Sequence record: NC_048205.1
Direction: 5' to 3' (one strand)
Length of the DNA stretch: 64,000 nt
DNA from: Escherichia phage vB_Eco_mar004NP2
The notes under the pieces are model-generated. The model saw only the letters and a program-made list of their open reading frames with translations, had not been told where the DNA came from and made no database searches. A program made the position numbers and the translations under genes. Below are positions 1,669 through 48,812 of this stretch, piece by piece; the stretch's first letter is position 1, and every line of letters begins with the position of its first letter.

Positions 1669-2534
1669 TTATGAAAAAAGAATTTAATGTACATAAAACT
1701 CTAGTAGTGCCAGATGATGCCAACTTGTTTTTCGTTGGTGATATTCATGGATGCAATGATTTGCTGGAAGATGCGTTGAAATTAGCTGGGTATAATAGCA
1801 AGAAAGATTGCGTAGTATGTGTTGGTGACTTAATTGACCGGGGCACACAAAACTTACAAGTTTTAGCTAAATTCTTATATAATCCACGTTTTTGTAGCGT
1901 TCGTGGAAATCATGACCAGTTTATGATTGTAGGAGATTGGGCTAACTGGATGTATAATGGAGGTATGTGGGCTATGAATGAGCTGGACGCAGATACCATT
2001 AAAAATATTGCCGAAGACATGGCTGAAAAACTTCCAGTATTTATGACTGTGCTGCATCGTGGCAAGAAGTATGGTGTTGTTCATGGTGGTGTACCTTTTA
2101 CATACAAAGAATGTGGTAACGAAGTAGAAACTCCAGTATGGGATAACCTTATTGCACAAGTAGAAGCAGCTAAGGAAGACCCACATGACCATCCTGGATA
2201 CCATGTTGAACCATATTTATGGGATCGAGATGTAATACAAGAAATAGGCTTCCATTTGTCCAAAAATGGTGAGGAACACCCGTATTTCCAGCGTTATTCT
2301 GGGTTTAAAGAAAAATACATGGTAGAAATACCTCCAGTTAGTGGGGTAGACTTTGTGTTTCATGGGCATACTGGAGTACCTTACCCTATTTTACACCAAA
2401 ATCGTGTTTACTTAGATACTGGCGGTGTTTTCAACGGGCAGTTGACGGTTGCGCAAGTTAATGATGAAACTGGCAAAATCACAACATTTACCACGCTTCG
2501 CGAAGATAGCTGTGGCATACAGAGGATTCTTTAA
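1659..2534 (+). CDS. Ser/Thr protein phosphatase (calcineurin-like metallophosphatase)
   Basis: motifs GDIHG, GDLIDRG, GNHD read in translation; 291 aa. Confidence 0.8.
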   Translation: MGIIMKKEFNVHKTLVVPDDANLFFVGDIHGCNDLLEDALKLAGYNSKKDCVVCVGDLIDRGTQNLQVLAKFLYNPRFCSVRGNHDQFMIVGDWANWMYNGGMWAMNELDADTIKNIAEDMAEKLPVFMTVLHRGKKYGVVHGGVPFTYKECGNEVETPVWDNLIAQVEAAKEDPHDHPGYHVEPYLWDRDVIQEIGFHLSKNGEEHPYFQRYSGFKEKYMVEIPPVSGVDFVFHGHTGVPYPILHQNRVYLDTGGVFNGQLTVAQVNDETGKITTFTTLREDSCGIQRIL

Positions 2535-3055
2535 TGAAAGTCTGCTTTTGGAGCGATCTACACTTAGGACATGCAAATATTACTAAATTCAGACCAATCT
2601 TCTCTACTATGGAAGAGCATGATGAATTTATTATGGATACTATTACATCCATGAAAGATAAGCGTACAGTATTTTATATTTTAGGGGATGCATTTGTATC
2701 TAGAAATGGTTTGGAGAAATTCGAAAAACTCTTTAGTAATGTTAGAACTACATTAGTTTTGGGGAACCACGACTTAGAACGAGAAGGGTTATCTTTCAAA
2801 GACTTAGTGGGAGTTGTAGATAACGTACAATCCCTAGTTAAGTATAAAAACTTTTGGCTTTCCCATGCTCCAGTACATCCAGAAGAGTTAAGGGGCAAGA
2901 AGAACTTACATGGGCATACTCACTTTGAGTTAATGGGGGACCCTCGTTATATTAACGTTTGTGTAGAGTATGCAAAATCACCAGTACGCCTGGAAGACAT
3001 CATGAATGGTAAGTACACTTCTCATGATAAAACTAGCTGGATGTTAAATGTCTAA
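2534..3055 (+). CDS. small metallophosphoesterase-like protein
   Basis: DLHLGH, GNHD, HGHTH motifs; 173 aa; start overlaps upstream stop. Confidence 0.55.
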   Translation: MKVCFWSDLHLGHANITKFRPIFSTMEEHDEFIMDTITSMKDKRTVFYILGDAFVSRNGLEKFEKLFSNVRTTLVLGNHDLEREGLSFKDLVGVVDNVQSLVKYKNFWLSHAPVHPEELRGKKNLHGHTHFELMGDPRYINVCVEYAKSPVRLEDIMNGKYTSHDKTSWMLNV

Positions 3056-3163
3056 GTATATAGCTGAGGTTATTATTAAACGAATTATACAGGCGATAGC
3101 AATACTTATAATCATTTGTATTGCTATTGGCACAGGATTAGGCATTTTAATTGAAAGTTTTAT

Positions 3164-3192
3164 TTGCTAAAATGCCTAAGTTTCTGTATAAT
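3164..3192 (+). promoter_or_regulatory. sigma70-type promoter TTGCTA-N17-TATAAT
   Basis: -35 at 3164-3169, -10 at 3187-3192; conserved TTTATAAATTGATGAGAAGG downstream box. Confidence 0.55.
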
Positions 3193-3222
3193 TACTTTAT
3201 AAATTGATGAGAAGGAATCAAA

Positions 3223-3654
3223 ATGAACAAAGTTGATAAAGCTCTAGTTTTCACAGCAGCAGATAAGTTTGAACAAGTTAAGGCAACTTTCCGAACCTTG
3301 TTCCAGTCTTACGTTCAGGATAAGTCTAATCCTATCTCTGAACGTTTGATGGTCTGGGAATGTCATGCATGCAATGCCTTATTAATTGCTGATTATCGTA
3401 GCGATATAGATAAAGATCTGTGCGAAATTCTTATCGCTGAGGAGGCAGAACGTTATCAGTTAATCTCTTTCCAAGATTTGGCAGAGCATATCATTCCCGA
3501 TGATCTTTGGGATAAATACTATGGTGATCCTGAAGATGAAGGAATGACTCCAGAAGCATGCATTGAGCTGATCTGCAAAGATCATCCTGAAATTGCAGAG
3601 AAATTTGAAAAAGTTTTTGCTTCTGAGTTCTCCGGCGTTGTTAACGATTGGTAA
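3223..3654 (+). CDS. hypothetical early protein (143 aa)
   Basis: ORF with RBS GAAGGA. Confidence 0.6.
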   Translation: MNKVDKALVFTAADKFEQVKATFRTLFQSYVQDKSNPISERLMVWECHACNALLIADYRSDIDKDLCEILIAEEAERYQLISFQDLAEHIIPDDLWDKYYGDPEDEGMTPEACIELICKDHPEIAEKFEKVFASEFSGVVNDW

Positions 3655-10190: not shown

Positions 10191-10400
10191 AATACGAATG
10201 ATAATGAGAATCATTCGTATTTAAAAAGCGGAATAAGAATGATAATAGTTCTCATTTAGAAAGTGAAATGAGAATCAATCTCATTTAAGAAAGGGAATGA
10301 GAACTATTCAAAAAATGAAATGATTCTCATTTAAAAAATGGAATGATTATCGGTTAGATAGTGAAATGCGAATGATAATGATTCTCATTTAAGAATGGAA
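10191..10400. repeat. cluster of short palindromes AATGAGA-N-TCTCATT (hairpin/operator-like)
   Basis: at least 5 palindromic units read directly; extra copies at 10727-10747 and 19721-19738. Confidence 0.75.
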
Positions 10401-10420
10401 GCGAGAAACACTATTATTTA

Positions 10421-10530
10421 AGTTACCCACAGACTTATTAACAGCACGATTTGATTTGACAGAATCCTAGCCATTTTGAGGCGTTATCAACAGACTTATC
10501 CACAGCTTATCCTACTGTATAAATATACAG
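10421..10530. repeat. left arm of ~110-bp inverted repeat with DnaA-box-like sites and 16-bp palindrome
   Basis: reverse complement of 14001-14110 aligns with identical blocks AGTTAYCCACA..TTATTAACAGCAC and ACTTATCCACAG..TTATCCTACTGTATAAATATACAG. Confidence 0.8.
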
Positions 10531-10788
10531 TATTCCTACGCAGTGAATAATTCTAATATAGCGTTAAAACGTCCTAAATCGCATTCTAACGCGCTTAATT
10601 TTGATGGGGATACTAAAACAAGGGCAAAATTGGAGGAGGCTTAAAAATTAGTTAGCTTGCTAACGATCACACAAGGCGACACGTAACACCCTAATCATTA
10701 GCAGGCTAACCATCACGGGCGCGGTTAAATGAGAATCACTCTCATTTGAGAATTGGGGGCACTCCCTGGTAGTTGCGCCCCGTTATTA

Positions 10789-10983
10789 TTAGTCTGGTAG
10801 TCGATGCGTGATCTTTTCCTCCTCCCCGTAGGAATCCACCAAATGCTGATAATAACCATCGTGATCATAAATCACTTTATCATACTCGCCACGCTCGACC
10901 GCTTGTCGGTTTTCCGGCGTATCGGGCACGTAAAAAACATCAACCATTGTACTGATTTTGGTTACAACAATTTTATTGCTCAT
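10789..10983 (-). CDS. hypothetical protein (start trimmed to MSNKIVV)
   Basis: ORF; RBS AGGGG before internal ATG. Confidence 0.45.
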   Translation of the reverse strand: MSNKIVVTKISTMVDVFYVPDTPENRQAVERGEYDKVIYDHDGYYQHLVDSYGEEEKITHRLPD

Positions 10984-11085
10984 AATAACCCCTAGTAAAT
11001 ATATTTTTGCCAATAGTGGCGAACGTTATCGCCACCAGCGGAATCATTTGCAGCCTCAACATTACCCGCGAAAATATATATAATC

Positions 11086-20982: not shown

Positions 20983-22740
20983 ATGGGTTTTTTCGCTGGA
21001 AAGTATAGCGATGGTAAGACCGTACTATCTTTAAATACTGAATCTGGGGGTGACATTAATCGTCACTATAGTCCAAGTAATAATAGTATTTTTCATAGTG
21101 ATATGCCATTTGTTCTAGTTGAGGGTACTTATGAGGCAGGATTAGGTGATGCCGGGAATGGGTTTTTCGTATGTCAGATGCCTCCTGATATAGTAAATAT
21201 TAAATCTAATGATCCTGGTAGAGTTATACTAACTGCTATTGAGATTAATGGTACTCACAGAGCTTTTCTTAATGGTACTCAGAGTAAAGTTGGTCAAACT
21301 ATAGTTGCCACTCAAGCAGACCCCTTTAGATCTTTTGCTAGTGTTTCTCAAACCAGTGGATTTGCATTTGGTAATAGTCTAGCATCTGGAACTTATAATT
21401 ATAACCCATCGATAGGGCACGAAGAATCTATCTCTAGGAGTGGTACAGGTGGTACTACGTTACATAGTACCTACCATGGGATAGTTAGGCCTGGTGCGGG
21501 AGCTCCTGTAGGTGTTACTGTTGCAGAAGCCTTTGCACAATTAGGTTTTCCTACTAATAGTAGCACAGTACCTGTAGATGGGAATAACCCGTACTATTGG
21601 GATCCTGGATGGATGTCGCCTCTAGGAGCAGCACATAGAGGGCATGATTGGTTTTATGTTTGCAACTCTAATATACGTGGATACGGTGGGGTTAGACAAG
21701 GGCTCCCAGGTAATGTAAATACTATGTACCACGACGGTGGGAACAGATTTGTTTGTAGGGGATCTACTACTAATTTAGCTAACCAGTCGGGTGACTCTAC
21801 AATACTACAGGATTGGTATAATATAACCCCTACTAAGGTTATTTGGTATGTTCTTAATTTAAGGTACTCTAATGGTGGAATGAGTATTTCAGGCAACCCC
21901 TTTACTGGTTCTGATATTCTTATATCTCCTTCTAATTTCATAATTAAAGGGGTAAGTCTCCCTAATACCGGGTATAAATTTATAAATCAGAATGCTTTTG
22001 GTAACCTAGGTTACCGTCCTGATATGGAGTATATAGGAAATAACGCAGCGTATACCGGGGTTTTTGGGGATACCACGGCAAGGTGTGAACTTGTAGGGTC
22101 TAGTAATGGAGGATTATGGTCTCCTGTAGACTATGGTGGAGCTAAATCCCAAATTAGCATTTACAAATTCGGAGCTGGTAAGCAATGGTATGTAAACTCT
22201 AGGGATAATACTATCGGTAATGAACACGGGGTTGTTTGGGGACCATCAGCAGTTCCATTACGACTTTTTGGTGGAAATGTAGGTAGCTCTTACATGGGGG
22301 ATGATATTACTCCCAGCTACCCGGGAACAGGGGATAGATACGTTGGTTTATCAACTATTGGGCTAGGTATACCGGGTGGCAATGCTACAGTAATTCTTAC
22401 CACTGAAGTTATATCAGGTAACCTTAACTGTGCAGGTGTTCCTGCTAATACATGGAATAACGGTGTGTTTCAAGTGCAAGGAAGAAGAGCATATAGCTAT
22501 AGTAATGGAGATGCAATATTCCACCAGATTTTAACATTACCAGTAGGGTATTTAGTACCTTTTCATACTACATCTGCTTTTAGGTACACACCTAACAATG
22601 CCCTAAGTAGAAATAGTTTTATATATACTGCTAAAAATCTGGGGAATGGAAATGTAGAGTTAGGGGTAGTTATGCACGTAAGTTTAGGTAGTGCAGTTTT
22701 CCTACCGAGATTAAGAGTAACAGTTCAACGCCTTACCTAA
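20983..22740 (+). CDS. receptor-binding tail protein (pb5/Oad-like)
   Basis: 585 aa Gly/Asn/Ser-rich protein divergent from llp-like gene; first gene of late block. Confidence 0.6.
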
Positions 22741-22750
22741 AGGAGGAAAT

Positions 22751-23233
22751 ATGGCAAATGATGTATTAGTACCAGATCTTATGTCCCCTGAAGGGATGGA
22801 TGTAATTGAAGCATATTTACAGTGTGGCAGCGATGTGCCTTCTGCCGCACGTAGTCTTGGGATGTCCGAAATTGCTTTTCGAGATATTATGAATCGTAGT
22901 GAAGTTAAGAACTACTTAAATGATATTTTTATGGAGAGTGGTTTCCGTAACAGAGATCGTTTATTTGGTGTTCTGGATGAAGTTATCAAGCGTAAACTAG
23001 AGGAACTAGAAGAAACTGGCATGGGTTCTGACCAAGATATTATGGATATTCTCTGGAAAGCACATAAAATGAAAATGGAAGAAATGAAAATGATGGTAGA
23101 ACTGGAGAAAGTGAAGGCAGCAGCCCGTACTCCAGCTAACCAGACCAACATCCAGAATAATATTATTGCTGGAGCTGGGGATCAAAACTACATGGACTTA
23201 ATTACTTCCCTAGCTACTGGAGGTAAGAAGTAA
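22751..23233 (+). CDS. putative terminase small subunit (160 aa)
   Basis: immediately upstream of and coupled to terminase large subunit; positional. Confidence 0.4.
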
Positions 23234-24549
23234 TGGAAGTATCAAGACCTTACGTTAATACAGTAGATGTTATTGATTTCGGAATAGATAAACGTTTCTT
23301 TCGTCTACCTGTTTCGGGAATACTAGCACAAGAAGGTATTACACCTAATGGTCCTCAAATAGCGATTATTAATGCTCTAGAGGATCCTAGACATCGTTTT
23401 GTAACGGCGTGTGTATCACGCCGTGTAGGTAAATCCTTCATCGCATATACTCTTGGGTTCCTAAAATTGCTGGAACCTAATGTGAAGGTGTTAGTAGTTG
23501 CTCCTAACTATTCACTGGCCAACATCGGATGGTCTCAGATTCGTGGTCTTATTAAAAAATATGGCCTACAAACTGAACGTGAGAACGCTAAAGATAAGGA
23601 AATTGAGTTAGCTAATGGTTCTCTGTTTAAACTAGCTTCCGCTGCTCAGGCTGACTCCGCGGTTGGACGTTCATATGATTTTATCATCTTTGACGAGGCG
23701 GCAATTTCCGATGTGGGTGGTGATGCCTTCAGGGTTCAGCTGCGTCCTACTCTAGATAAACCTAATTCTAAGGCTCTATTTATTTCCACACCTCGTGGAG
23801 GTAACTGGTTTAAAGAGTTTTACGCCTACGGATTTGATGATACGTTGCCTAACTGGGTATCTATTCATGGTACATATCGTGATAACCCTCGTGCTGACCT
23901 GAATGATATAGAAGAAGCACGTCGTACGGTTAGTAAAAACTACTTCCGCCAGGAATATGAAGCTGACTTCTCTGTATTTGAAGGTCAGATTTTTGATACT
24001 TTCAATGCTATTGACCATGTTAAAGACCTTAAGGGTATGCGTCATTTCTTTAAAGATGATGAAGCATTCGAAACGTTGCTTGGTATCGACGTTGGTTATC
24101 GTGATCCTACAGCAGTTCTTACTATTAAGTATCATTACGATACGGATACTTACTATGTATTAGAAGAGTATCAGCAGGCGGAGAAAACTACAGCTCAGCA
24201 TGCTGCTTACATTCAGCACTGTATAGATCGTTATAAAGTTGATCGTATTTTTGTTGACTCCGCGGCAGCTCAGTTCCGTCAAGACTTAGCTTATGAGCAT
24301 GAAATTGCATCAGCTCCAGCTAAAAAATCTGTCCTAGATGGCCTAGCATGCCTGCAAGCACTGTTCCAACAGGGTAAGATTATTGTAGATGCCTCATGCT
24401 CCTCCTTAATTCATGCACTGCAGAACTATAAGTGGGACTTCCAAGAAGGTGAAGAGAAATTATCACGTGAAAAACCACGTCATGATGCTAATTCTCACCT
24501 TTGTGATGCGCTGCGCTATGGAATTTACTCTATTTCCCGTGGTAAATAA
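23233..24549 (+). CDS. terL: terminase large subunit
   Basis: 438 aa; Walker A-like SRRVGKS; position upstream of portal. Confidence 0.8.
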   Translation: MEVSRPYVNTVDVIDFGIDKRFFRLPVSGILAQEGITPNGPQIAIINALEDPRHRFVTACVSRRVGKSFIAYTLGFLKLLEPNVKVLVVAPNYSLANIGWSQIRGLIKKYGLQTERENAKDKEIELANGSLFKLASAAQADSAVGRSYDFIIFDEAAISDVGGDAFRVQLRPTLDKPNSKALFISTPRGGNWFKEFYAYGFDDTLPNWVSIHGTYRDNPRADLNDIEEARRTVSKNYFRQEYEADFSVFEGQIFDTFNAIDHVKDLKGMRHFFKDDEAFETLLGIDVGYRDPTAVLTIKYHYDTDTYYVLEEYQQAEKTTAQHAAYIQHCIDRYKVDRIFVDSAAAQFRQDLAYEHEIASAPAKKSVLDGLACLQALFQQGKIIVDASCSSLIHALQNYKWDFQEGEEKLSREKPRHDANSHLCDALRYGIYSISRGK

Positions 24550-24827
24550 ATAAGTATAGGATGGGATACTACTCAGTTGGTATCCCATTCCTGCATTTTA
24601 AAATCCCCTTTACAAATTCGATACGATTATGTATACTATATTCATTGATCGGGAGAACTTCTCCCATAATAGAACGTAAACAAGAAAAATTAATGCTCTA
24701 CATGGGGTGTAGGAGATTCTATGGGTCGACAAAAGCTAACAATAAAAGATATAAATATTAGATTAGCTGATCGTGGAATCCAAATTGTCGGTGAGTATGT
24801 AAACCAACGTACAAAAACAGTATTTAA

Positions 24828-25394
24828 ATGCCAGAGAGCACATGTTTGGGAAGCAACACACATTCTATACTCCATATGGGGAGAGGTTGTCCACACTGCT
24901 CCAATAATACAATATCGTTAGATGAAGTTAATAACAGAATATCTAATATAGGGTATACTCTGTTAAGCAGCTATACTAATGCTAAAACAAAACTACATCT
25001 ACGCTGCAATAAGGGGCATGACTGTTTACTTACCTTAGATGGATTGACTCAAGGTAAGAGATGTCCTTATTGTTCTCTTAAGTGGGAGAATGGCGGATTC
25101 CTCTATATCATGTCCTCCTCTAGTGGTACTAAAGTAGGCATAAGCTTATACCCTGAGAAACGGCTGAATGAAGTTAAAAGAGAATCTGGATTTTCTGACC
25201 TATACTTGTTCACCATGTATCATCTGCCAGATAGAGAGACTGCTTTAGATTTAGAAAAGGAAGTTCACAGAGAATATTATAATAAAAACTGTGGGTTTTC
25301 TAATTTTACAGGAAGCACGGAATTTTTTAATGTTGCTCCTGAGGATATAGTAATCTTTCTAAGTAGCTTTGGATTGGAGGATTATGGCCACTAA
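24828..25394 (+). CDS. homing-endonuclease-like protein (zinc ribbon plus GIY-YIG-like/T5orf172-type region)
   Basis: CPHCS..CPYCS zinc motifs; GFLYIMSSSSGTKVGIS resembles GIY-YIG-like core; upstream 24721-24921 fragment in another frame has the same motif. Confidence 0.5.
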   Translation: MPESTCLGSNTHSILHMGRGCPHCSNNTISLDEVNNRISNIGYTLLSSYTNAKTKLHLRCNKGHDCLLTLDGLTQGKRCPYCSLKWENGGFLYIMSSSSGTKVGISLYPEKRLNEVKRESGFSDLYLFTMYHLPDRETALDLEKEVHREYYNKNCGFSNFTGSTEFFNVAPEDIVIFLSSFGLEDYGH

Positions 25395-25821
25395 TACTAA
25401 GTACAAACGTGATGCCATTTCCATAATGAGGGATGGTATAAAATCTAGGTATAGTAAGGATGGTTGCTGTGCTATATGTGGTAGTAGTGAAGACCTAGAA
25501 CTTCACCATTATCATACTATATCTCAGCTAATAAAAAAATTTGCTAAAGAACTCCAGCTGGATTTCACTGATGAGAATATCGTCCTTTCAAATAGGGAAG
25601 CATTCTACAAGAAATATGAGCATGAGTTAGTTAGGGACGTGGTAACATTGTGCCAGCACCATCACCAATTATTACATAAGGTTTACACAAAAGAACCTCC
25701 TTTATTTTCTGCTAATAAGCAAAAAGCGTGGGTTCAAAAGCAGAAAGACAAATTACAGAATCCTCAAGAAAAGACACAAGTCAAGACTGAAACAAAATCA
25801 GGATTCGCAAGGTTCTTATAA
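25369..25821 (+). CDS. HNH endonuclease
   Basis: CAICGSSEDLELHH and LCQHHHQLLHK motifs. Confidence 0.7.
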   Translation: MDWRIMATNTKYKRDAISIMRDGIKSRYSKDGCCAICGSSEDLELHHYHTISQLIKKFAKELQLDFTDENIVLSNREAFYKKYEHELVRDVVTLCQHHHQLLHKVYTKEPPLFSANKQKAWVQKQKDKLQNPQEKTQVKTETKSGFARFL

Positions 25822-27032
25822 TGGGTTTAAAAAGCTGGATTACTGAAAAGTTAAATCCGGGTCAACGTATTATAAGAGACATGGAACCAGTTAGTCATCG
25901 CACTAACCGTAAGCCTTTTACCACTGGACAAGCCTACAGTAAAATTGAGATTCTCAATAGAACTGCTAATATGGTTATAGATAGTGCGGCGGAGTGTTCT
26001 TATACTGTCGGAGATAAATATAATATTGTTACGTACGCTAATGGCGTCAAAACAAAGACTCTAGACACTCTCTTAAATGTACGACCTAATCCATTCATGG
26101 ATATAAGCACATTCCGTAGACTTGTAGTCACTGACCTACTTTTTGAAGGTTGTGCATACATCTATTGGGATGGCACATCGCTTTACCATGTCCCGGCTGC
26201 TCTTATGCAGGTCGAGGCAGATGCCAATAAGTTTATCAAAAAGTTTATATTTAATAATCAGATAGACTATCGCGTAGATGAGATTATCTTTATAAAGGAT
26301 AACAGTTACGTGTGTGGCACAAATTCTCAAATTTCTGGACAATCTCGTGTTGCTACTGTTATTGATTCTCTTGAAAAGCGTTCTAAGATGCTTAACTTTA
26401 AAGAGAAATTCCTAGATAACGGAACCGTGATTGGTCTTATTCTTGAGACGGATGAAATCCTGAACAAGAAATTGCGTGAGCGTAAACAAGAAGAATTACA
26501 ACTCGATTATAATCCTAGTACTGGTCAGTCTTCTGTCCTGATTCTAGATGGTGGTATGAAAGCTAAACCGTACTCCCAAATATCCTCTTTTAAAGATCTA
26601 GACTTTAAGGAAGACATTGAAGGATTTAATAAATCTATCTGTCTAGCCTTTGGTGTTCCGCAAGTGTTGCTTGATGGGGGTAATAATGCGAACATTCGAC
26701 CAAACATCGAACTGTTCTATTATATGACTATCATTCCTATGCTGAACAAACTGACTAGTTCTCTTACTTTCTTTTTTGGTTATAAGATCACTCCGAATAC
26801 TAAGGAAGTCGCAGCATTAACACCAGATAAAGAAGCAGAGGCTAAACATTTAACCTCATTGGTTAATAATGGTATTATAACCGGTAACGAAGCTCGTTCA
26901 GAGCTGAACCTTGAACCTTTAGATGATGAGCAGATGAATAAGATCCGTATTCCTGCTAACGTCGCTGGTTCTGCAACAGGTGTATCTGGTCAAGAAGGTG
27001 GTAGACCCAAGAGTTCCACCGAGGGAGATTAA
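25821..27032 (+). CDS. portal protein
   Basis: 403 aa; between terminase and prohead protease. Confidence 0.7.
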   Translation: MGLKSWITEKLNPGQRIIRDMEPVSHRTNRKPFTTGQAYSKIEILNRTANMVIDSAAECSYTVGDKYNIVTYANGVKTKTLDTLLNVRPNPFMDISTFRRLVVTDLLFEGCAYIYWDGTSLYHVPAALMQVEADANKFIKKFIFNNQIDYRVDEIIFIKDNSYVCGTNSQISGQSRVATVIDSLEKRSKMLNFKEKFLDNGTVIGLILETDEILNKKLRERKQEELQLDYNPSTGQSSVLILDGGMKAKPYSQISSFKDLDFKEDIEGFNKSICLAFGVPQVLLDGGNNANIRPNIELFYYMTIIPMLNKLTSSLTFFFGYKITPNTKEVAALTPDKEAEAKHLTSLVNNGIITGNEARSELNLEPLDDEQMNKIRIPANVAGSATGVSGQEGGRPKSSTEGD

Positions 27033-34631: not shown

Positions 34632-37600
34632 ATGACTGATAAGCTAATACGAGAATTACTGATAGACGTTAAACAGAAGGGGGCAACTCGTACTGCAAAG
34701 TCTATTGAAAACGTATCTGATGCATTAGAGAATGCTGCTGCGGCTTCTGAGCTAACGAATGAACAGTTAGGTAAAATGCCCAAAACTCTATACTCCATTG
34801 AGAGAGCAGCAGACAGGGCAGCAAAAAGTCTTACTAAAATGCAAGCTAGTAGGGGTATGGCTGGTATCACTAAATCCATTGATGGTATTGGTGATAAGCT
34901 AGATTACCTGGCTATCCAACTTATTGAAGTAACAGATAAGCTAGAAATTGGATTCGACGGAGTTTCTAGATCTGTTAAAACAATGGGCAATGATGTTGCA
35001 GCTGCAACAGAGAAAGTTCAAGATAGATTGTATGACACCAATAGAGTTTTAGGCGGTACAACTAGAGGTTTTAATGACACTGCAGGTGCCGCTGGTAGAG
35101 CTTCTAGAGCTATTGGTAATACTTCTGGTTCGGCACGTGGGGCTACCCGTGATTTTGCAGCAATGGCTAAGATCGGTGGTAGTTTACCTATTATGTATGC
35201 AGCTCTTGCTTCCAACATCTTCGTTTTGCAATCTGCATTCGAACAACTTAAGTTAGGTGATCAGCTAAATCGTCTAGAAAAATTTGGTGTTATAGTAGGT
35301 ACTCAGACAGGTACTCCTGTTCAGTCTCTTGCTAGATCACTACAAGAAGCTGCCGGATATGCTATCTCCTTTGAAGAAGCAATGAGACAAGCATCCTCTG
35401 CTTCTGCGTACGGATTTGATGCTGAACAACTTAATAAATTTGGTCTAGTAGCTCGTCGTGCTGCTGCTGTTCTTGGCGTTGATATGACTGATGCACTTAA
35501 CCGTGTAATTAAGGGTGTATCTAAACAAGAAATCGAACTTCTGGATGAACTTGGTGTTACTATTCGTCTTAATGACGCATATGCTGATTACGTTAAACAG
35601 TTGAATGCTGCAAACACAGGTATAACATATAATATTAATAGCCTTACTACCTTCCAGAAACAGCAAGCGTATGCTAATGCTGTTATAGCAGAGTCTACTA
35701 AACGTTTTGGTTACTTAGATGAAGTTTTACGTGCTACTCCGTGGGAGCAGTTTGCCGCTAATGCTGATGCCGCACTGAGAAAGATTCAGCAGGCTGCTGC
35801 TAAGTATTTAGGGCCGGTAATTGATGCTATCAACACAGTATTTTATACTTCTCAGGCTTCTATATCTGCTGAAGCAGCTAGAGCTCAAGAAAAAACCAAT
35901 AGACAGATAGATCCTACCAACGTTGGTGCTGTTGCTTTAAGTTTGGCCGCTTCTGAAGAAGGCTATAATAAAGCTCTAGATATGTACAAGGAATCTCTTG
36001 ATAAGCGTAATAAGCTAAAATCCGAATTCGATAAACGAATGGAGCAAGCGGATTTCTATACAAGATTAGCCATACGTCAAGTTGGTGAAGGTATTCCTGT
36101 TGGTCTTGCTGCTGCTGGTGCTTCCGAAGCTAATAAAAAGTTCGTAGAAGAAACTGCGGCTATGGGTCTACAAGTAACCAGACTAGGTAAGGAAGTAGAA
36201 GATTCTACTGAAAACCTTAATGCTTGGAAGTCAGCCTATCAAGCTGCGGGTGCTGCTGCTGCAAAAGCTAATCCAGAGTTTCAGAAACAGATTAATCTAC
36301 AGAGAGATACTACTGATCCTGGTGCTGTATATGACTTTAACTCCACAGTATTAAAAGGACTAACTGAACAACAGAAAGCATATAATCAAACTAAGAAAAC
36401 TGCTAGTGACTTAGCTAATGATATACAGAACGTTGCTCAGAATACAGATACTGCTGCTAAAACTAGTGCTACTTTAGCAGATGCTATAAAAAACATAGAA
36501 TCTCTATCCTTAGGCACTGGTAAGAGTGCCGATGAGTATGTTAAAAACCTTAACCTGGGCTATAACACACTGTCTGAAATGAAAACTGCATCTCAGGCTC
36601 TATCTGAGTATGTTAAACTAACTGGTAATGAAACTAAAAATCAGTTAGCAGTTCAACAGAAAATAGCTGATGTGTACAACCAAACTAAGGATAAGGAAAA
36701 GGCTCAGGAAGCGGGTAGACGTTTAGAGTTGCAACAGTTAGAAGAGCAAGAAGCTGCTTTACGCCGTGTTCTTCAAACAAACCAGGGAAATAAAGCTGTT
36801 GAGAAAGAAATTGAAAAAATTCAGCTGGAGAAACTTAGACTTACCAATCAGGGTATGGAAGCCCAGAAGAAGGTCAAGGATTACACAGATAAAATTCTTG
36901 GTGTAGATCGTGAGATAGCTCTCCTGAATGACCGTACTATGACTACTACTCAATATAGATTAGCTCAGCTAAAACTAGAACTAACTGTAGAGAAAGAGAA
37001 GTACGAATGGTATACAAAACAAGCGGACAAACAGAAAGAGGCGGAACAGTCTAGACGTGCGCAAGCACAAATAAGCCGGGAGTTATGGGAAGCGGAGAAG
37101 CAGGCAACTGCCTCACATGTATCAGCTCTCATGGATGCACTAGAAGTCAGCCAAACACAAAGAAATGTTACTGGCCAAGCTCAGATTCTTACGGAAAGAT
37201 TATCTGTTTTGCAAGAACAGCTAGAACTATCTAAGGGCAATACCGAAGAAGAGATCAAGTATCGTAATGAGATCTATAAAACTGCTGCTGCTCTAGAGCA
37301 ACTTAGAAAGCAAAGAGAAGGCCAAATGCAGCAACAGGTAGGATCTTCTGTGGGTGCTGTGTACACTCCTACAACTGGACTATCTGGGGAAGACAAAGAT
37401 TTTGCAGATATGCAAAATAGAATGGCTTCTTATGATCAGGCAATCTCTAAGCTATCTGAATTAAATTCTGAAGCAACCGCTGTGGCTCAAAGTATGGGTA
37501 ACTTAACTAACGCTATGATTCAGTTCTCTCAGGGATCCTTAGATACTACCTCCTTGATTGCTTCTGGCATGCAAACTGTATCTTCTATGATTCAGTATAG

Positions 37601-38312
37601 TACTAGTCAACAGGTTAGTGCTATTGATGCAGCTATCGCAGCGGAGCAGAAACGTGATGGTAAATCAGAAGCATCTAAAGCTAAATTGAAGAAGCTAGAA
37701 GCTGAAAAGCTGAAGATTCAACAAGACGCAGCTAAGAAGCAGATTATCATCCAAACTGCGGTAGCAGTAATGCAAGCGGCAACAGCTGTACCGTACCCGT
37801 TCTCTATTCCTTTGATGGTGGCGGCAGGTTTAGCAGGTGCCTTAGCTCTTGCTCAAGCATCTTCTGCTTCTGGTATGTCAAGTATTGCTGATTCTGGAGC
37901 GGATACAACTAGTTACTTAACCTTAGGAGAGCGTCAGAAGAATATAGATGTGTCTATGTCTGCTAATGCTGGTGAATTATCTTATATCCGTGGTGATAAA
38001 GGCATAGGCGGTGCTAACTCTTTCGTTCCTCGTGCTGAGGGTGGTAATATGTACCCTGGGGTTAGCTATCAAATGGGTGAGCATGGTACAGAAGTAGTTA
38101 CCCCTATGGTTCCTATGAAAGCTACGCCTAATGATGAGCTAAAAACCTCATCTAACTCAACTTCAGGAAGACCTATCATCCTGAATATTAGTGCTATGGA
38201 TGCTGCAAGTTTTAGAGAGTTTGCTTCTAGTAATAGTAGTGCTCTAAGAGACGCAGTGGAATTAGCTCTGAATGAGAACGGTGCTAGTCTGAAAACATTA
38301 GGAAATTCTTAA
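34632..38312 (+). CDS. tape measure protein (pb2-like)
   Basis: 1226 aa, extensive coiled coil, hydrophobic Ala/Gly-rich segment near C-terminus. Confidence 0.9.
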   Translation: MTDKLIRELLIDVKQKGATRTAKSIENVSDALENAAAASELTNEQLGKMPKTLYSIERAADRAAKSLTKMQASRGMAGITKSIDGIGDKLDYLAIQLIEVTDKLEIGFDGVSRSVKTMGNDVAAATEKVQDRLYDTNRVLGGTTRGFNDTAGAAGRASRAIGNTSGSARGATRDFAAMAKIGGSLPIMYAALASNIFVLQSAFEQLKLGDQLNRLEKFGVIVGTQTGTPVQSLARSLQEAAGYAISFEEAMRQASSASAYGFDAEQLNKFGLVARRAAAVLGVDMTDALNRVIKGVSKQEIELLDELGVTIRLNDAYADYVKQLNAANTGITYNINSLTTFQKQQAYANAVIAESTKRFGYLDEVLRATPWEQFAANADAALRKIQQAAAKYLGPVIDAINTVFYTSQASISAEAARAQEKTNRQIDPTNVGAVALSLAASEEGYNKALDMYKESLDKRNKLKSEFDKRMEQADFYTRLAIRQVGEGIPVGLAAAGASEANKKFVEETAAMGLQVTRLGKEVEDSTENLNAWKSAYQAAGAAAAKANPEFQKQINLQRDTTDPGAVYDFNSTVLKGLTEQQKAYNQTKKTASDLANDIQNVAQNTDTAAKTSATLADAIKNIESLSLGTGKSADEYVKNLNLGYNTLSEMKTASQALSEYVKLTGNETKNQLAVQQKIADVYNQTKDKEKAQEAGRRLELQQLEEQEAALRRVLQTNQGNKAVEKEIEKIQLEKLRLTNQGMEAQKKVKDYTDKILGVDREIALLNDRTMTTTQYRLAQLKLELTVEKEKYEWYTKQADKQKEAEQSRRAQAQISRELWEAEKQATASHVSALMDALEVSQTQRNVTGQAQILTERLSVLQEQLELSKGNTEEEIKYRNEIYKTAAALEQLRKQREGQMQQQVGSSVGAVYTPTTGLSGEDKDFADMQNRMASYDQAISKLSELNSEATAVAQSMGNLTNAMIQFSQGSLDTTSLIASGMQTVSSMIQYSTSQQVSAIDAAIAAEQKRDGKSEASKAKLKKLEAEKLKIQQDAAKKQIIIQTAVAVMQAATAVPYPFSIPLMVAAGLAGALALAQASSASGMSSIADSGADTTSYLTLGERQKNIDVSMSANAGELSYIRGDKGIGGANSFVPRAEGGNMYPGVSYQMGEHGTEVVTPMVPMKATPNDELKTSSNSTSGRPIILNISAMDAASFREFASSNSSALRDAVELALNENGASLKTLGNS

Positions 38313-38316
38313 AACT

Positions 38317-38346
38317 GGAGGAGGACTTTGAGTCCTCCTTTTCTTT
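38317..38346 (+). terminator. rho-independent terminator
   Basis: GGAGGACT-TTG-AGTCCTCC then TTTTCTTT. Confidence 0.65.
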
Positions 38347-38421
38347 ATGGAAAAATAAAAATTTCTTGATAAAATTTTCTAATACTATTATAATATTGTT
38401 ATTAAAGAGGAGAAATTAACT

Positions 38422-39036
38422 ATGAGATTACCAGACCCATACACGAATCCAGAACTTTCAGGCTTAGGATTCGAAAGTGTTAACCTGATTGATAATGACC
38501 CAGTAATTCGTGATGAGTTACCAAATGGTAAAGTTAACGAAGTTAAGGTATCTGCTCAATACTGGGGTATAAATATTTCTTATCCAGAATTATTTCCAGA
38601 TGAATATAGTGTTCTAGATGCATTTATTCTAGAATACAAAAGGACTGGTGGTTATATAGATGTTATATTACCACAATACGAAGCTTTTAGAGTTAGAGGT
38701 AATACTAGCCTAGTAAATATACCTGCTGGACAGAAGGGTTCTAATATAACTATGGATACAAAAGGACTTCTCACAGGTATTCCAAAACCAGGGGATCTAT
38801 TTAAGCTATCTAACCATCCAAAAGTATATAAAATAACATCATTCAATAAATCAGGCAATACGTGGTCTATAAACTTATACCCTGATTTATTTATAACTAC
38901 TACTGGGGCTGAGAAACCAGTGTTTAACGGAATACTATTTAGAACAAAACTCATGAATGGTGATGCTTTCGGATCTACATTAAATAATAACGGAACATAT
39001 TCCGGCATCTCATTAAATTTACGGGAAAGTTTATGA
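38422..39036 (+). CDS. distal tail protein (Dit, pb9-like)
   Basis: 204 aa directly after tape measure gene. Confidence 0.6.
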   Translation: MRLPDPYTNPELSGLGFESVNLIDNDPVIRDELPNGKVNEVKVSAQYWGINISYPELFPDEYSVLDAFILEYKRTGGYIDVILPQYEAFRVRGNTSLVNIPAGQKGSNITMDTKGLLTGIPKPGDLFKLSNHPKVYKITSFNKSGNTWSINLYPDLFITTTGAEKPVFNGILFRTKLMNGDAFGSTLNNNGTYSGISLNLRESL

Positions 39037-47042: not shown

Positions 47043-48812
47043 ATGGTAACTAAAACAGTAATTCCTACGGATATTACAAAACTTAAAAATGAGTCACTTA
47101 ATAAAAATAATAACCTGAGTGACTTAGCAGACCGTGCAGCAGCATGGCTAAATGTGCGTCCTATTGGATCTACCCCTCTTGCTGGAGATCCTGTTAGTGA
47201 CTATGATGCCGCAACTAAGCGTTGGGTGGAGAACAAACTTAATACTGGCACAGTAGGACCCACAATGAATGGTGTTATGAACTACGGGGTGGGGGATTTT
47301 CATCTTCGAGATAGCCGTGCGTATATTCAACCTTATGAGGTAGTTTCTGATGGGCAGCTTCTTAACAGGGCTGACTGGCCTGAACTTTGGGCGTATGCAC
47401 AAATGGTTGGAGCTATAGATGATTCAGTTTGGTTAGCAGATGTAGGACAACGTGGGAAATATTCTACGGGAGATGGTACCACTACTTTCCGCGTCCCAGA
47501 TCGTAATGGTGTGCAACTAAATTCAATCAAAGGGTTATTCGCTCGTGGTGACGGTGGGGGGGATGCTGGTCAAGCTGGTTCAATATCAGAAGCTGCAGCA
47601 CCCAATATTACTGGTAGTTTTCCTGGCGCTATTGCTGGTGCATATGAAGAAGCGCTTAATAGATATTCATCTAGATTTGGTCTTATTGGGGCGATTGGTG
47701 GTGAAAACGGCTTAGGTGCCGCTCCTGGAGGTGCATCTAAATCATTCGCCGTAGTTAATCCTGATAACCAATACGGATTTAGTTTTGATGCAAACTTAGC
47801 GGACCCTGTTTATGGGCGTTATGGAATAAAAGGTACTATTATTCCAAACAGCTTTATAGGTGTCTGGGTAATCCGTGCTTCTGGTGGGTTCGTGGCTGCA
47901 AAGACTTCGTGGAGTGTTATTAGTGGTGATGCTGTCAAACCTAATACTGGTACTACTGTTTATGGCGGGAGTGTACTATCTGAGTATAAAGTAGGTACTA
48001 GTAGTGAGGCTGTAAGTACACTACGAGCTAAAGCTACTATTGGTGGCACCTACTCTACTGAACTACTAATAGACAATAAATCTACCGGTAAATCGAATTC
48101 CGCCCAGCTTGTAGATAATGGGGATTTTGTAACGGATCGTTTTAAAGCTAGATTAGTTACTGGCATGGCGTGGTCTCAGACTGGCTGGGTACAAGGTACT
48201 CTTTCTCAGAACGAGGTCAATATAGGTAGTACATTTAACTTTAATAGTATATTGAGCGGTTCCCAGTCTTCTTCCGCAGGGTATAAGACATCTGCACATT
48301 TTGGATTAATTCATAATGACTTAGGCTCATTTGCAGATTCTTGTTGGCAGGTAGCGGGAGATGATGATAATAAATTTGGTGTGCGTTTAAAAATTCAGCC
48401 GAATAATAATAGTATTTATTTTTATTCTTGGTGGCCAGGTGCTTCAGCAACCTATACTTTGCAATTAAATGCTGTATCTGATTCTCGCTTAAAGCATGAT
48501 ATTAAGGCTATAGACGCAACTAAGTCCATCGAGGTATTAAAAGGATTAGAATTCCAATCCTTTGTATATAATAACGATGAAAAATCTCGTGTCCGACGTG
48601 GGGTTATTGCTCAGCAAGTAGAGACTATAGAACCACTTTATGTAAAAACTAGAAAATTTTATAATGATGACGGAATAGAGCAGGAGCAAAAGGAATTAGA
48701 TACAACTCCAATGCTTCTTGACACTATGCATGTTGTGCAAGATCTTATTAAACGGATTGAAGATCTAGAGAAAGAGCTTGAGCAATTAAAGGTACAATTA
48801 GTATCACAATAA
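47043..48812 (+). CDS. tail fibre protein B with C-terminal intramolecular chaperone (S74-type autoproteolytic domain)
   Basis: 589 aa; SDSRLKHDI motif and C-terminal coiled coil. Confidence 0.65.
   Translation: MVTKTVIPTDITKLKNESLNKNNNLSDLADRAAAWLNVRPIGSTPLAGDPVSDYDAATKRWVENKLNTGTVGPTMNGVMNYGVGDFHLRDSRAYIQPYEVVSDGQLLNRADWPELWAYAQMVGAIDDSVWLADVGQRGKYSTGDGTTTFRVPDRNGVQLNSIKGLFARGDGGGDAGQAGSISEAAAPNITGSFPGAIAGAYEEALNRYSSRFGLIGAIGGENGLGAAPGGASKSFAVVNPDNQYGFSFDANLADPVYGRYGIKGTIIPNSFIGVWVIRASGGFVAAKTSWSVISGDAVKPNTGTTVYGGSVLSEYKVGTSSEAVSTLRAKATIGGTYSTELLIDNKSTGKSNSAQLVDNGDFVTDRFKARLVTGMAWSQTGWVQGTLSQNEVNIGSTFNFNSILSGSQSSSAGYKTSAHFGLIHNDLGSFADSCWQVAGDDDNKFGVRLKIQPNNNSIYFYSWWPGASATYTLQLNAVSDSRLKHDIKAIDATKSIEVLKGLEFQSFVYNNDEKSRVRRGVIAQQVETIEPLYVKTRKFYNDDGIEQEQKELDTTPMLLDTMHVVQDLIKRIEDLEKELEQLKVQLVSQ

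Follow-up and report, generated by a model that had tools for sequence, protein, structure and literature searches.

The two short open reading frames (ORFs) between the terminase and portal genes of this phage, 24721-24921 (frame 1) and 24828-25394 (frame 3), are halves of one gene, a homolog of the T5 gene T5.154/T5p150. Taken as a whole, the data make it very probable that this is a free-standing gene of the T5orf172 homing-endonuclease type, knocked out here by the loss of one C, and that the neighbouring HNH gene is a nickase without selfish character. The element is of an already known kind, namely the ortholog of an annotated T5 gene with a private one-base deletion. Mildly new are only the sharply bounded block formed by the cassette and the 5' part of the nickase gene, and the two nickase alleles that result.

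Genomic setting of the cassette

The window (the whole stretch of DNA analysed, 64,000 nt) belongs to a T5-like phage of the genus Tequintavirus, and the region of the split gene is 97.7% identical to that of phage T5. The best alignment was obtained with Salmonella phage SPLA5b (OR413584); over 49.9 kb the two are 99.85% identical and differ by 67 mismatches and three indel events. Upstream of the split gene, the genes of the receptor-binding tail protein (20983-22740), the small terminase (22751-23233) and the large terminase (terL, 23233-24549) follow one another. Downstream, the two ORFs are succeeded by the HNH gene, the portal gene and the genes of the decoration protein, the protease and the major head protein. 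The features of this region are as follows.

23233-24549, plus strand: terminase large subunit gene, left flank outside the element (Pfam Terminase_6N/6C; annotated as terL in all relatives)
24559-24590, plus strand: terminator-like hairpin 3' of terL, conserved with or without the cassette (seen in the sequence)
24609-24637, plus strand: promoter-like site TTTACA-17-TATACT, for the nickase and portal genes (T5, AY692264, and BF23 have an annotated promoter at this position)
24646-25383, plus strand: the cassette, an optional insertion that cassette-free T5-like phages lack (alignment with IrmaTschudi and SPC35)
25384-25821, plus strand: conserved HNH nicking endonuclease gene, sciA in some relatives, T5.153 (PDB, PHROGs, all relatives)
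25821-27032, plus strand: portal protein gene, right flank (Pfam Phage_portal, 1.7e-50)

The cassette starts immediately after the sequence ending in TATATTCAT at 24645, just downstream of the promoter-like site. The segment that separates it from terL (24550-24645) is 94.8-100% identical across the IMG/VR loci, cassette-free ones included (97.9-100% in all but locus L028).

Thirty-eight of the 67 mismatches to SPLA5b are clustered where the alignment begins, within about 700 nt (10267-10980), in small hypothetical genes, with a 2-nt length difference of an (AT)n run close by (11074-11075). This cluster is a local mosaic patch, the two genomes being otherwise 99.9% identical. At window position 47555, a G run contains 7 G against 10 G in SPLA5b (37375-37377), an in-frame difference that adds or removes one glycine inside the SPLA5b 'tail fiber protein' (36862-38634).

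One gene split by a single missing base

The preliminary description of this DNA had listed both ORFs, with one unit of a shared motif in each, and they are indeed present at these positions. The repeated units are real; the motif itself, given there with C-x-x-H, should carry C-x3-H and reads Y-x-N-x-x-TK ... C-x3-H ... G-x-x-C-P-x-C. The change of frame had been placed at 24880-24900. This interval turned out to be merely part of the overlap of the two frames (24828-24921), and the actual break is at 24859. The gene is accordingly divided into the following parts.

24721-24858, plus strand: 5' gene part, codons 1-46 in frame 1, first zinc finger through its C-x3-H half (tblastn, 100% identity)
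24859, plus strand: frameshift site, one C in place of CC in all relatives (alignment, GCAACACCACATT to GCAACACACATT)
24860-25394, plus strand: 3' gene part in frame 3, comprising the rest of finger 1 (its CPxC half), the whole of a second CapR-like finger and the T5orf172/MUG113 nuclease domain (tblastn, Pfam, PHROGs)

At the break, relatives read ACACCACAT and the window reads ACACACAT. In the alignment with SPLA5b, T5, IrisVonRoten and 3sent1, the relatives' GCAACACCACATT encodes E-A-T-P-H-S, and a tblastn search with the repaired protein placed residues 45-224 in frame 3. The deletion was absent from all 17 phage records matching the 71-nt stretch, every one of which spans 72 nt, and the 35-mer bearing it had no exact match in IMG/VR.

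The same two ORFs in relatives would have spoken against a broken gene; the full-length relatives examined contain instead a single intact ORF with a product of 224-230 aa. All 13 full-cassette relatives that were translated have it intact (224 aa, and 230 aa in one), and each tblastn match listed at 90% identity or more is one piece spanning residues 1-224. Their annotations give one CDS of 675 nt, named 'endonuclease', 'putative homing endonuclease' or 'T5orf172 domain-containing protein'. Between diverged intact copies the dN/dS is 0.08-0.09, indicating strong purifying selection.

In the window, frame 1 continues past the break to a stop at 24919-24921, which leaves a product of 66 aa containing one half of a zinc finger. 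Neither of the in-frame ATGs of the downstream frame (24828 and 24876) is preceded by a Shine-Dalgarno sequence; hence the nuclease domain is probably not made. At its 3' end the gene overlaps the start of the nickase gene by 11 nt. For annotation, the two short ORFs should be replaced by one disrupted T5orf172 homing-endonuclease gene.

The T5 RefSeq record (NC_005859; positions 562-1395 of our locus L002) presents T5.154 as a 277-aa protein that starts right after the terL stop and is noted for a 'single transmembrane domain'. This start lies 160 nt further upstream owing to a difference in G-run length: the window has GGGG at 24704-24707 (GAGG in some relatives) where T5 has GGG, which brings an upstream ATG into frame in T5. 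The extended reading (window 24561-24761) crosses the terminator hairpin and the promoter, and the other relatives start at the ATG equivalent to 24721. The 277-aa version is probably an over-extended annotation.

Domain composition of the intact product

The intact 224-aa product is composed of two tandem CapR-like C-x3-H...C-x2-C zinc fingers, presumably DNA-binding modules, followed by a T5orf172 nuclease domain, which is related to GIY-YIG. After repair, the two finger units matched each other in BLASTP (E=2e-10, 29% identity over 56 aa). In Pfam, the repaired protein scored 35.2 bits for CapR (PF21817, cut-off 24.2) in two stretches and 30.9 bits for DUF4379 (PF14311, cut-off 24.5), while both scores stayed below the cut-off for the unrepaired ORFs. 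Residues 125-210 of the repaired protein gave 33.5 bits for T5orf172 (PF10544, cut-off 20) and 35.8 bits for MUG113 (PF13455, cut-off 22.3), and PHROGs returned phrog_681 'endonuclease' at 8.4e-60. The elements GFLYI...KVGIS...R...GSTEFF can be recognised by eye in the nuclease domain. A sequence search of the PDB with the repaired protein gave chance-level matches only (E>=0.059).

Origin of the missing base

The gene had been described as decaying or read by frameshifting. The first half of this description agrees with the private 1-nt deletion found here; the second half was given up. Because the deletion is private and the relatives are intact and under purifying selection, the split reflects either a very recent knockout or a sequencing error, and not programmed frameshifting. 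Between the first two, we consider it rather probable that the missing C is a real, biological and very recent knockout.

A sequencing or assembly error, under which the phage would really possess an intact 224-aa T5orf172 gene, is conceivable and has some weight, although we doubt it. It would agree with a deletion that is unique among the phage records and IMG/VR contigs checked, with an intact gene in a nearest relative as close as SPLA5b, and with strong purifying selection on the gene elsewhere. However, the site is a CC doublet and no long homopolymer. Random errors would be expected in essential genes as well, but over the 50 kb compared with SPLA5b no well-supported gene other than the one split at 24859 has its frame broken by an indel, the other two of the three indel events being the 3-nt in-frame G run and the 2-nt (AT)n run. 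Frameshift decay is, moreover, a documented fate of this class of T5orf172 genes (PMC10448857).

Joining of the two ORFs in expression by programmed -1 ribosomal frameshifting or transcriptional slippage is extremely improbable. The frames do overlap and together encode the complete protein, but the base needed for the repaired protein is ordinary in-frame sequence in every relative, and no other genome conserves the two-frame state. The site, GCA ACA CAC ATT, offers neither an X XXY YYZ heptamer (24850-24870) nor a homopolymer run, so that programmed frameshifting is excluded for practical purposes. With the slippery site absent and all relatives in a single frame, this candidate was rejected, and the knockout is retained as the preferred reading.

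Decayed remnants of the gene in Gostya9, smaug, DT571/2 and locus L040 are about 98% identical to the window up to the sequence ending in GCAACACCACAT and diverge at the next base, where they read WEATPH and then YTSTLYH*. This point lies a few bases from the deletion in the window. The proximity may be a coincidence or may mark a local hotspot (ACACCACA).

The HNH gene is the conserved T5 nicking endonuclease

The product of the HNH gene is identical in 143 of 145 aa to PDB entry 9qgv_A, 'Nicking endonuclease' (E=1.4e-95), and also matches 9qgx_A. One of the two differences, H to Q, falls in the LELHH motif of the crystallised protein; we take it to be an engineered active-site mutation. PHROGs assigned the protein to phrog_8048 HNH (2.8e-7), and the motifs CxxC...HH...N...CxxHH were found in it; Pfam gave no match at E<=0.1. 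Relatives call the gene sciA (Gostya9, Sepoy) or 'nicking site-specific endonuclease'.

An HNH ORF had been proposed at 25369-25821. The ORF is real, but the TTG at 25369 is the longest possible start, and relatives use the ATG at 25384. This ATG has its own Shine-Dalgarno sequence (GGAGGA) and is likely the true start.

The gene was also thought to belong to a mobile endonuclease cassette. Mobility was found to apply to the T5orf172 gene and to about 270 nt at the 5' end of the HNH gene, and not to the HNH gene as such. Optional presence, as looked for in an HNH homing endonuclease, was not observed: the gene occurs in each of the 28 IMG/VR loci and in 517 phage records, irrespective of the cassette. 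Being universal in relatives and matching the solved T5 nickase, it was rejected as a member of a mobile island and kept in it for its 5' tract only. The HNH gene is a conserved T5 nicking endonuclease, neither selfish nor a homing endonuclease, and should be annotated as such and not as a second homing endonuclease.

T5-type DNA has site-specific nicks, and the loci sciA and sciB, which map to the late region, affect nicking (PMC3517423). BF23 DNA also carries specific nicks, according to PMC10644984. As BF23 lacks the cassette and yet has nicked DNA, the T5orf172 gene is not needed for nicking. A literature search for the structure of the T5 nickase or a molecular definition of sciA/sciB returned no primary source.

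Distribution and decay of the cassette

Comparison of terminase-portal spacing, which had been suggested as a check on the insertion, confirmed that it is optional. Most non-carriers, among them SPC35, IrmaTschudi and BF23, span 1081 nt against 1801 nt, with terL joined directly to the HNH gene. The cassette is covered in full by 72 of the 442 phage records matching the region, and 77 records carry a copy at 90% protein identity or more by tblastn. Seventeen IMG/VR loci gave no match to it.

Carriers occur in Tequintavirus and in Epseptimavirus (falkor). Gostya9, smaug, DT571/2 and phA11 retain decayed remnants in which the start codon is mutated and internal stretches are deleted; no gene is annotated there. 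The locus illustrates how a homing endonuclease gene comes and goes in nature, with intact copies under purifying selection, a fresh frameshift in the window, older remnants in several relatives and empty sites in most.

A more distant homolog of 226 aa with 53% identity was found in the Klebsiella Sugarlandvirus Spivey (positions 2001-3153 of locus L043). It lies between terL and the gene of a 160-aa 'nicking endonuclease', again with an 11-nt overlap. Since order and overlap are the same, the arrangement either predates the split of Tequintavirus and Epseptimavirus or was re-created in Sugarlandvirus. Paralogs of 35-39% identity adjoin other essential genes, for example nrdD, in other T5-like phages.

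In IMGVR_UViG_2974597248 (positions 2262-3438 of locus L023), the cassette is 88% identical with a 230-aa ORF, and the nickase gene just 85.6%. OSY-STA (NC_048808) and SP1a (MF774689) were considered as locus variants and set aside, being frameshift-rich assemblies with the nickase and portal genes split into small CDSs.

Two nickase alleles linked to the cassette

Compared with 17 cassette-free loci, the HNH gene of the window shows 78-82% identity, whereas terL shows 85-95% and the portal gene 94-98%. Against nine loci with a full cassette or a remnant of the DT571/2 type (locus L023 excluded), its identity is 95-99.8%. With its 85.6%, L023 represents an intermediate third type between the two main nickase alleles. 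The divergence lies within a single tract.

25384-25653, plus strand: cassette-linked allele tract inside the nickase gene (identity windows, bimodality, block shared with S124)

Per 30-nt window, identity to cassette-free phages is 53-94% within this tract (mostly 53-80%, with one window at 94%) and 87-100% beyond it. The first 90 codons contain 30 synonymous and 21 non-synonymous codon differences, against 2-6 codon differences in the last 55 codons for the Tequintavirus-type loci L025 and L031 and 18 for the more distant L036. Across the phage records the tract is bimodal, with 81 records at 90% or more and 434 at 60-80%. The tract and the block shared with phage S124 (which ends near 25632) have a common right boundary.

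Such linkage might suggest that the T5orf172 protein has been domesticated and serves the nickase or the packaging machinery, perhaps by setting specificity or by regulation, its gene and the nickase allele together making up one functional module. This explanation could draw on the 11-nt overlap with the neighbouring nickase gene, an arrangement kept in Tequintavirus, Epseptimavirus and Sugarlandvirus, on the perfect linkage of the cassette to a distinct nickase allele (21 of the first 90 residues differing), on the low dN/dS of about 0.08 and on the existence of two late-region loci, sciA and sciB, that affect nicking (PMC3517423). We nevertheless regard it as improbable. The T5orf172 gene is missing in roughly 84% of relatives, including BF23 with its specifically nicked DNA; several phages with an intact nickase gene have only remnants of it, and it is broken in the apparently viable phage of the window. 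In addition, the paralogs beside other essential genes such as nrdD correspond to the usual pattern of homing endonuclease genes.

Slightly more speculative is a reading in which the T5orf172 gene behaves as one drive unit with the first 270 nt of the nickase gene and, by homing, replaces the catalytic and DNA-recognition core of the resident nickase with the linked allele, or in which the T5orf172 gene is sciB, the second nicking locus; we give it little credence. If the drive-unit version were true, a nickase of altered nick-site specificity could spread through T5-like phages.

Horizontal transfer and proposed homing

Phage S124 is 97-100% identical to the window over about 24533-25632 and 99-100% from 24633 on. 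Outside this block, terL is 78-92% identical, and the region beyond 25632 (the 3' end of sciA and the portal gene) 82-98%. The cassette therefore looks mobile, as a 1.1 kb block nearly 100% identical to S124 is embedded in diverged flanks. Likewise, in smaug, an Epseptimavirus, the HNH/nickase gene is 98.2% identical against 87.6% for terL. The block carries part of an essential neighbour gene between phage genera.

Two marks of a homing endonuclease gene were thus observed, namely variable presence at one fixed site and an element more similar than its flanks. Sequence comparison supports the view that the zinc-finger/T5orf172 gene is an optional, horizontally moving gene of putative homing-endonuclease type. 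The earlier proposal of such a gene between terminase and portal holds for this T5orf172 member.

In the proposed course of events, a mixed infection with a cassette-free T5-like phage would allow the enzyme to cleave the allele lacking the cassette, at a site within or close to the first two-thirds of the nickase gene. Repair by recombination would then bring in the cassette along with the neighbouring ~270 nt of that gene, and the outcome would be a mobile block of ~1.1 kb and two nickase alleles. A sharply bounded, two-allele pattern is what would be expected if a free-standing homing endonuclease cuts a neighbouring gene and repair co-converts the interval from the cut to the insertion. 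We infer both the homing activity and this position of the cleavage site. The 1.1 kb block could serve as a convenient test system for putative homing by T5orf172 proteins.

Ordinary homologous recombination without the help of an endonuclease could also have produced the block common to S124. The gene order and 11-nt overlap of the 53%-identical homolog in Sugarlandvirus, taken with the strong purifying selection, would also agree with a gene of long standing, perhaps of some use, that was lost several times.

Relation to known systems

Free-standing homing endonucleases of phage T4 (Seg, Mob) are intergenic selfish nucleases beside an essential gene, and a flanking tract travels along with them. 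The cassette of the window resembles them in being intergenic beside an essential gene with a co-travelling flank tract. Unlike Seg (canonical GIY-YIG) and Mob (HNH), its gene belongs to the T5orf172 subfamily with other DNA-binding modules, and cleavage by its product is putative.

The closest known counterparts are T5.154/T5p150 (AY543070, AY692264) and orthologs such as bas32_0003 of IrisVonRoten. They occupy the same locus with 96-99% protein identity and have the same fingers and T5orf172 domain, whereas in the window the gene is one C short and falls into two frames. The BASEL phage annotations name these orthologs 'putative homing endonuclease'.

T5orf172 homing endonuclease genes with repeated CapR/DUF zinc fingers are abundant in T5-like phages, as described by Barth, Dunham & Seed 2023 (PMC10448857). 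They lie most often near terminase genes, differ from isolate to isolate and owe their instability to frameshifts and deletions. The same authors describe homing of the T5orf172 genes of ICP1 as experimentally untested (PMC10448857). Genes of the ICP1 gp174 type share with the window gene the N-terminal CapR/DUF4379 repeats, the C-terminal T5orf172 nuclease, terminase adjacency, variable presence and frameshift decay, but belong to another phage lineage; homing is a proposal in both cases. In the work of Isaev and colleagues (PMC10644984), homing endonuclease genes are given as the main source of difference among T5-like genomes.

The T5 nickase of PDB 9qgv/9qgx is the same protein as the HNH product of the window, with no difference of substance, and the 5' tract of the window gene is the cassette-linked allele. 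Small HNH proteins of the HK97 gp74 type are encoded between the terminase and portal genes in packaging modules. The likeness to them consists in position and in the small HNH protein, whereas the T5 protein is named a nickase by the PDB depositors. Proteins of the HK97 gp74 type are discussed in PMC10448857.

Among the matching records, OR847562.1 (Listeria phage LM 4-11-1), OR849157.1, OR845102.1 and OR850776.1 are only 2-9 kb long and 96-99% identical to the T5-like terminase, nickase or cassette. These short records, including those labelled Listeria phage, are likely mislabelled or contaminant Tequintavirus fragments.
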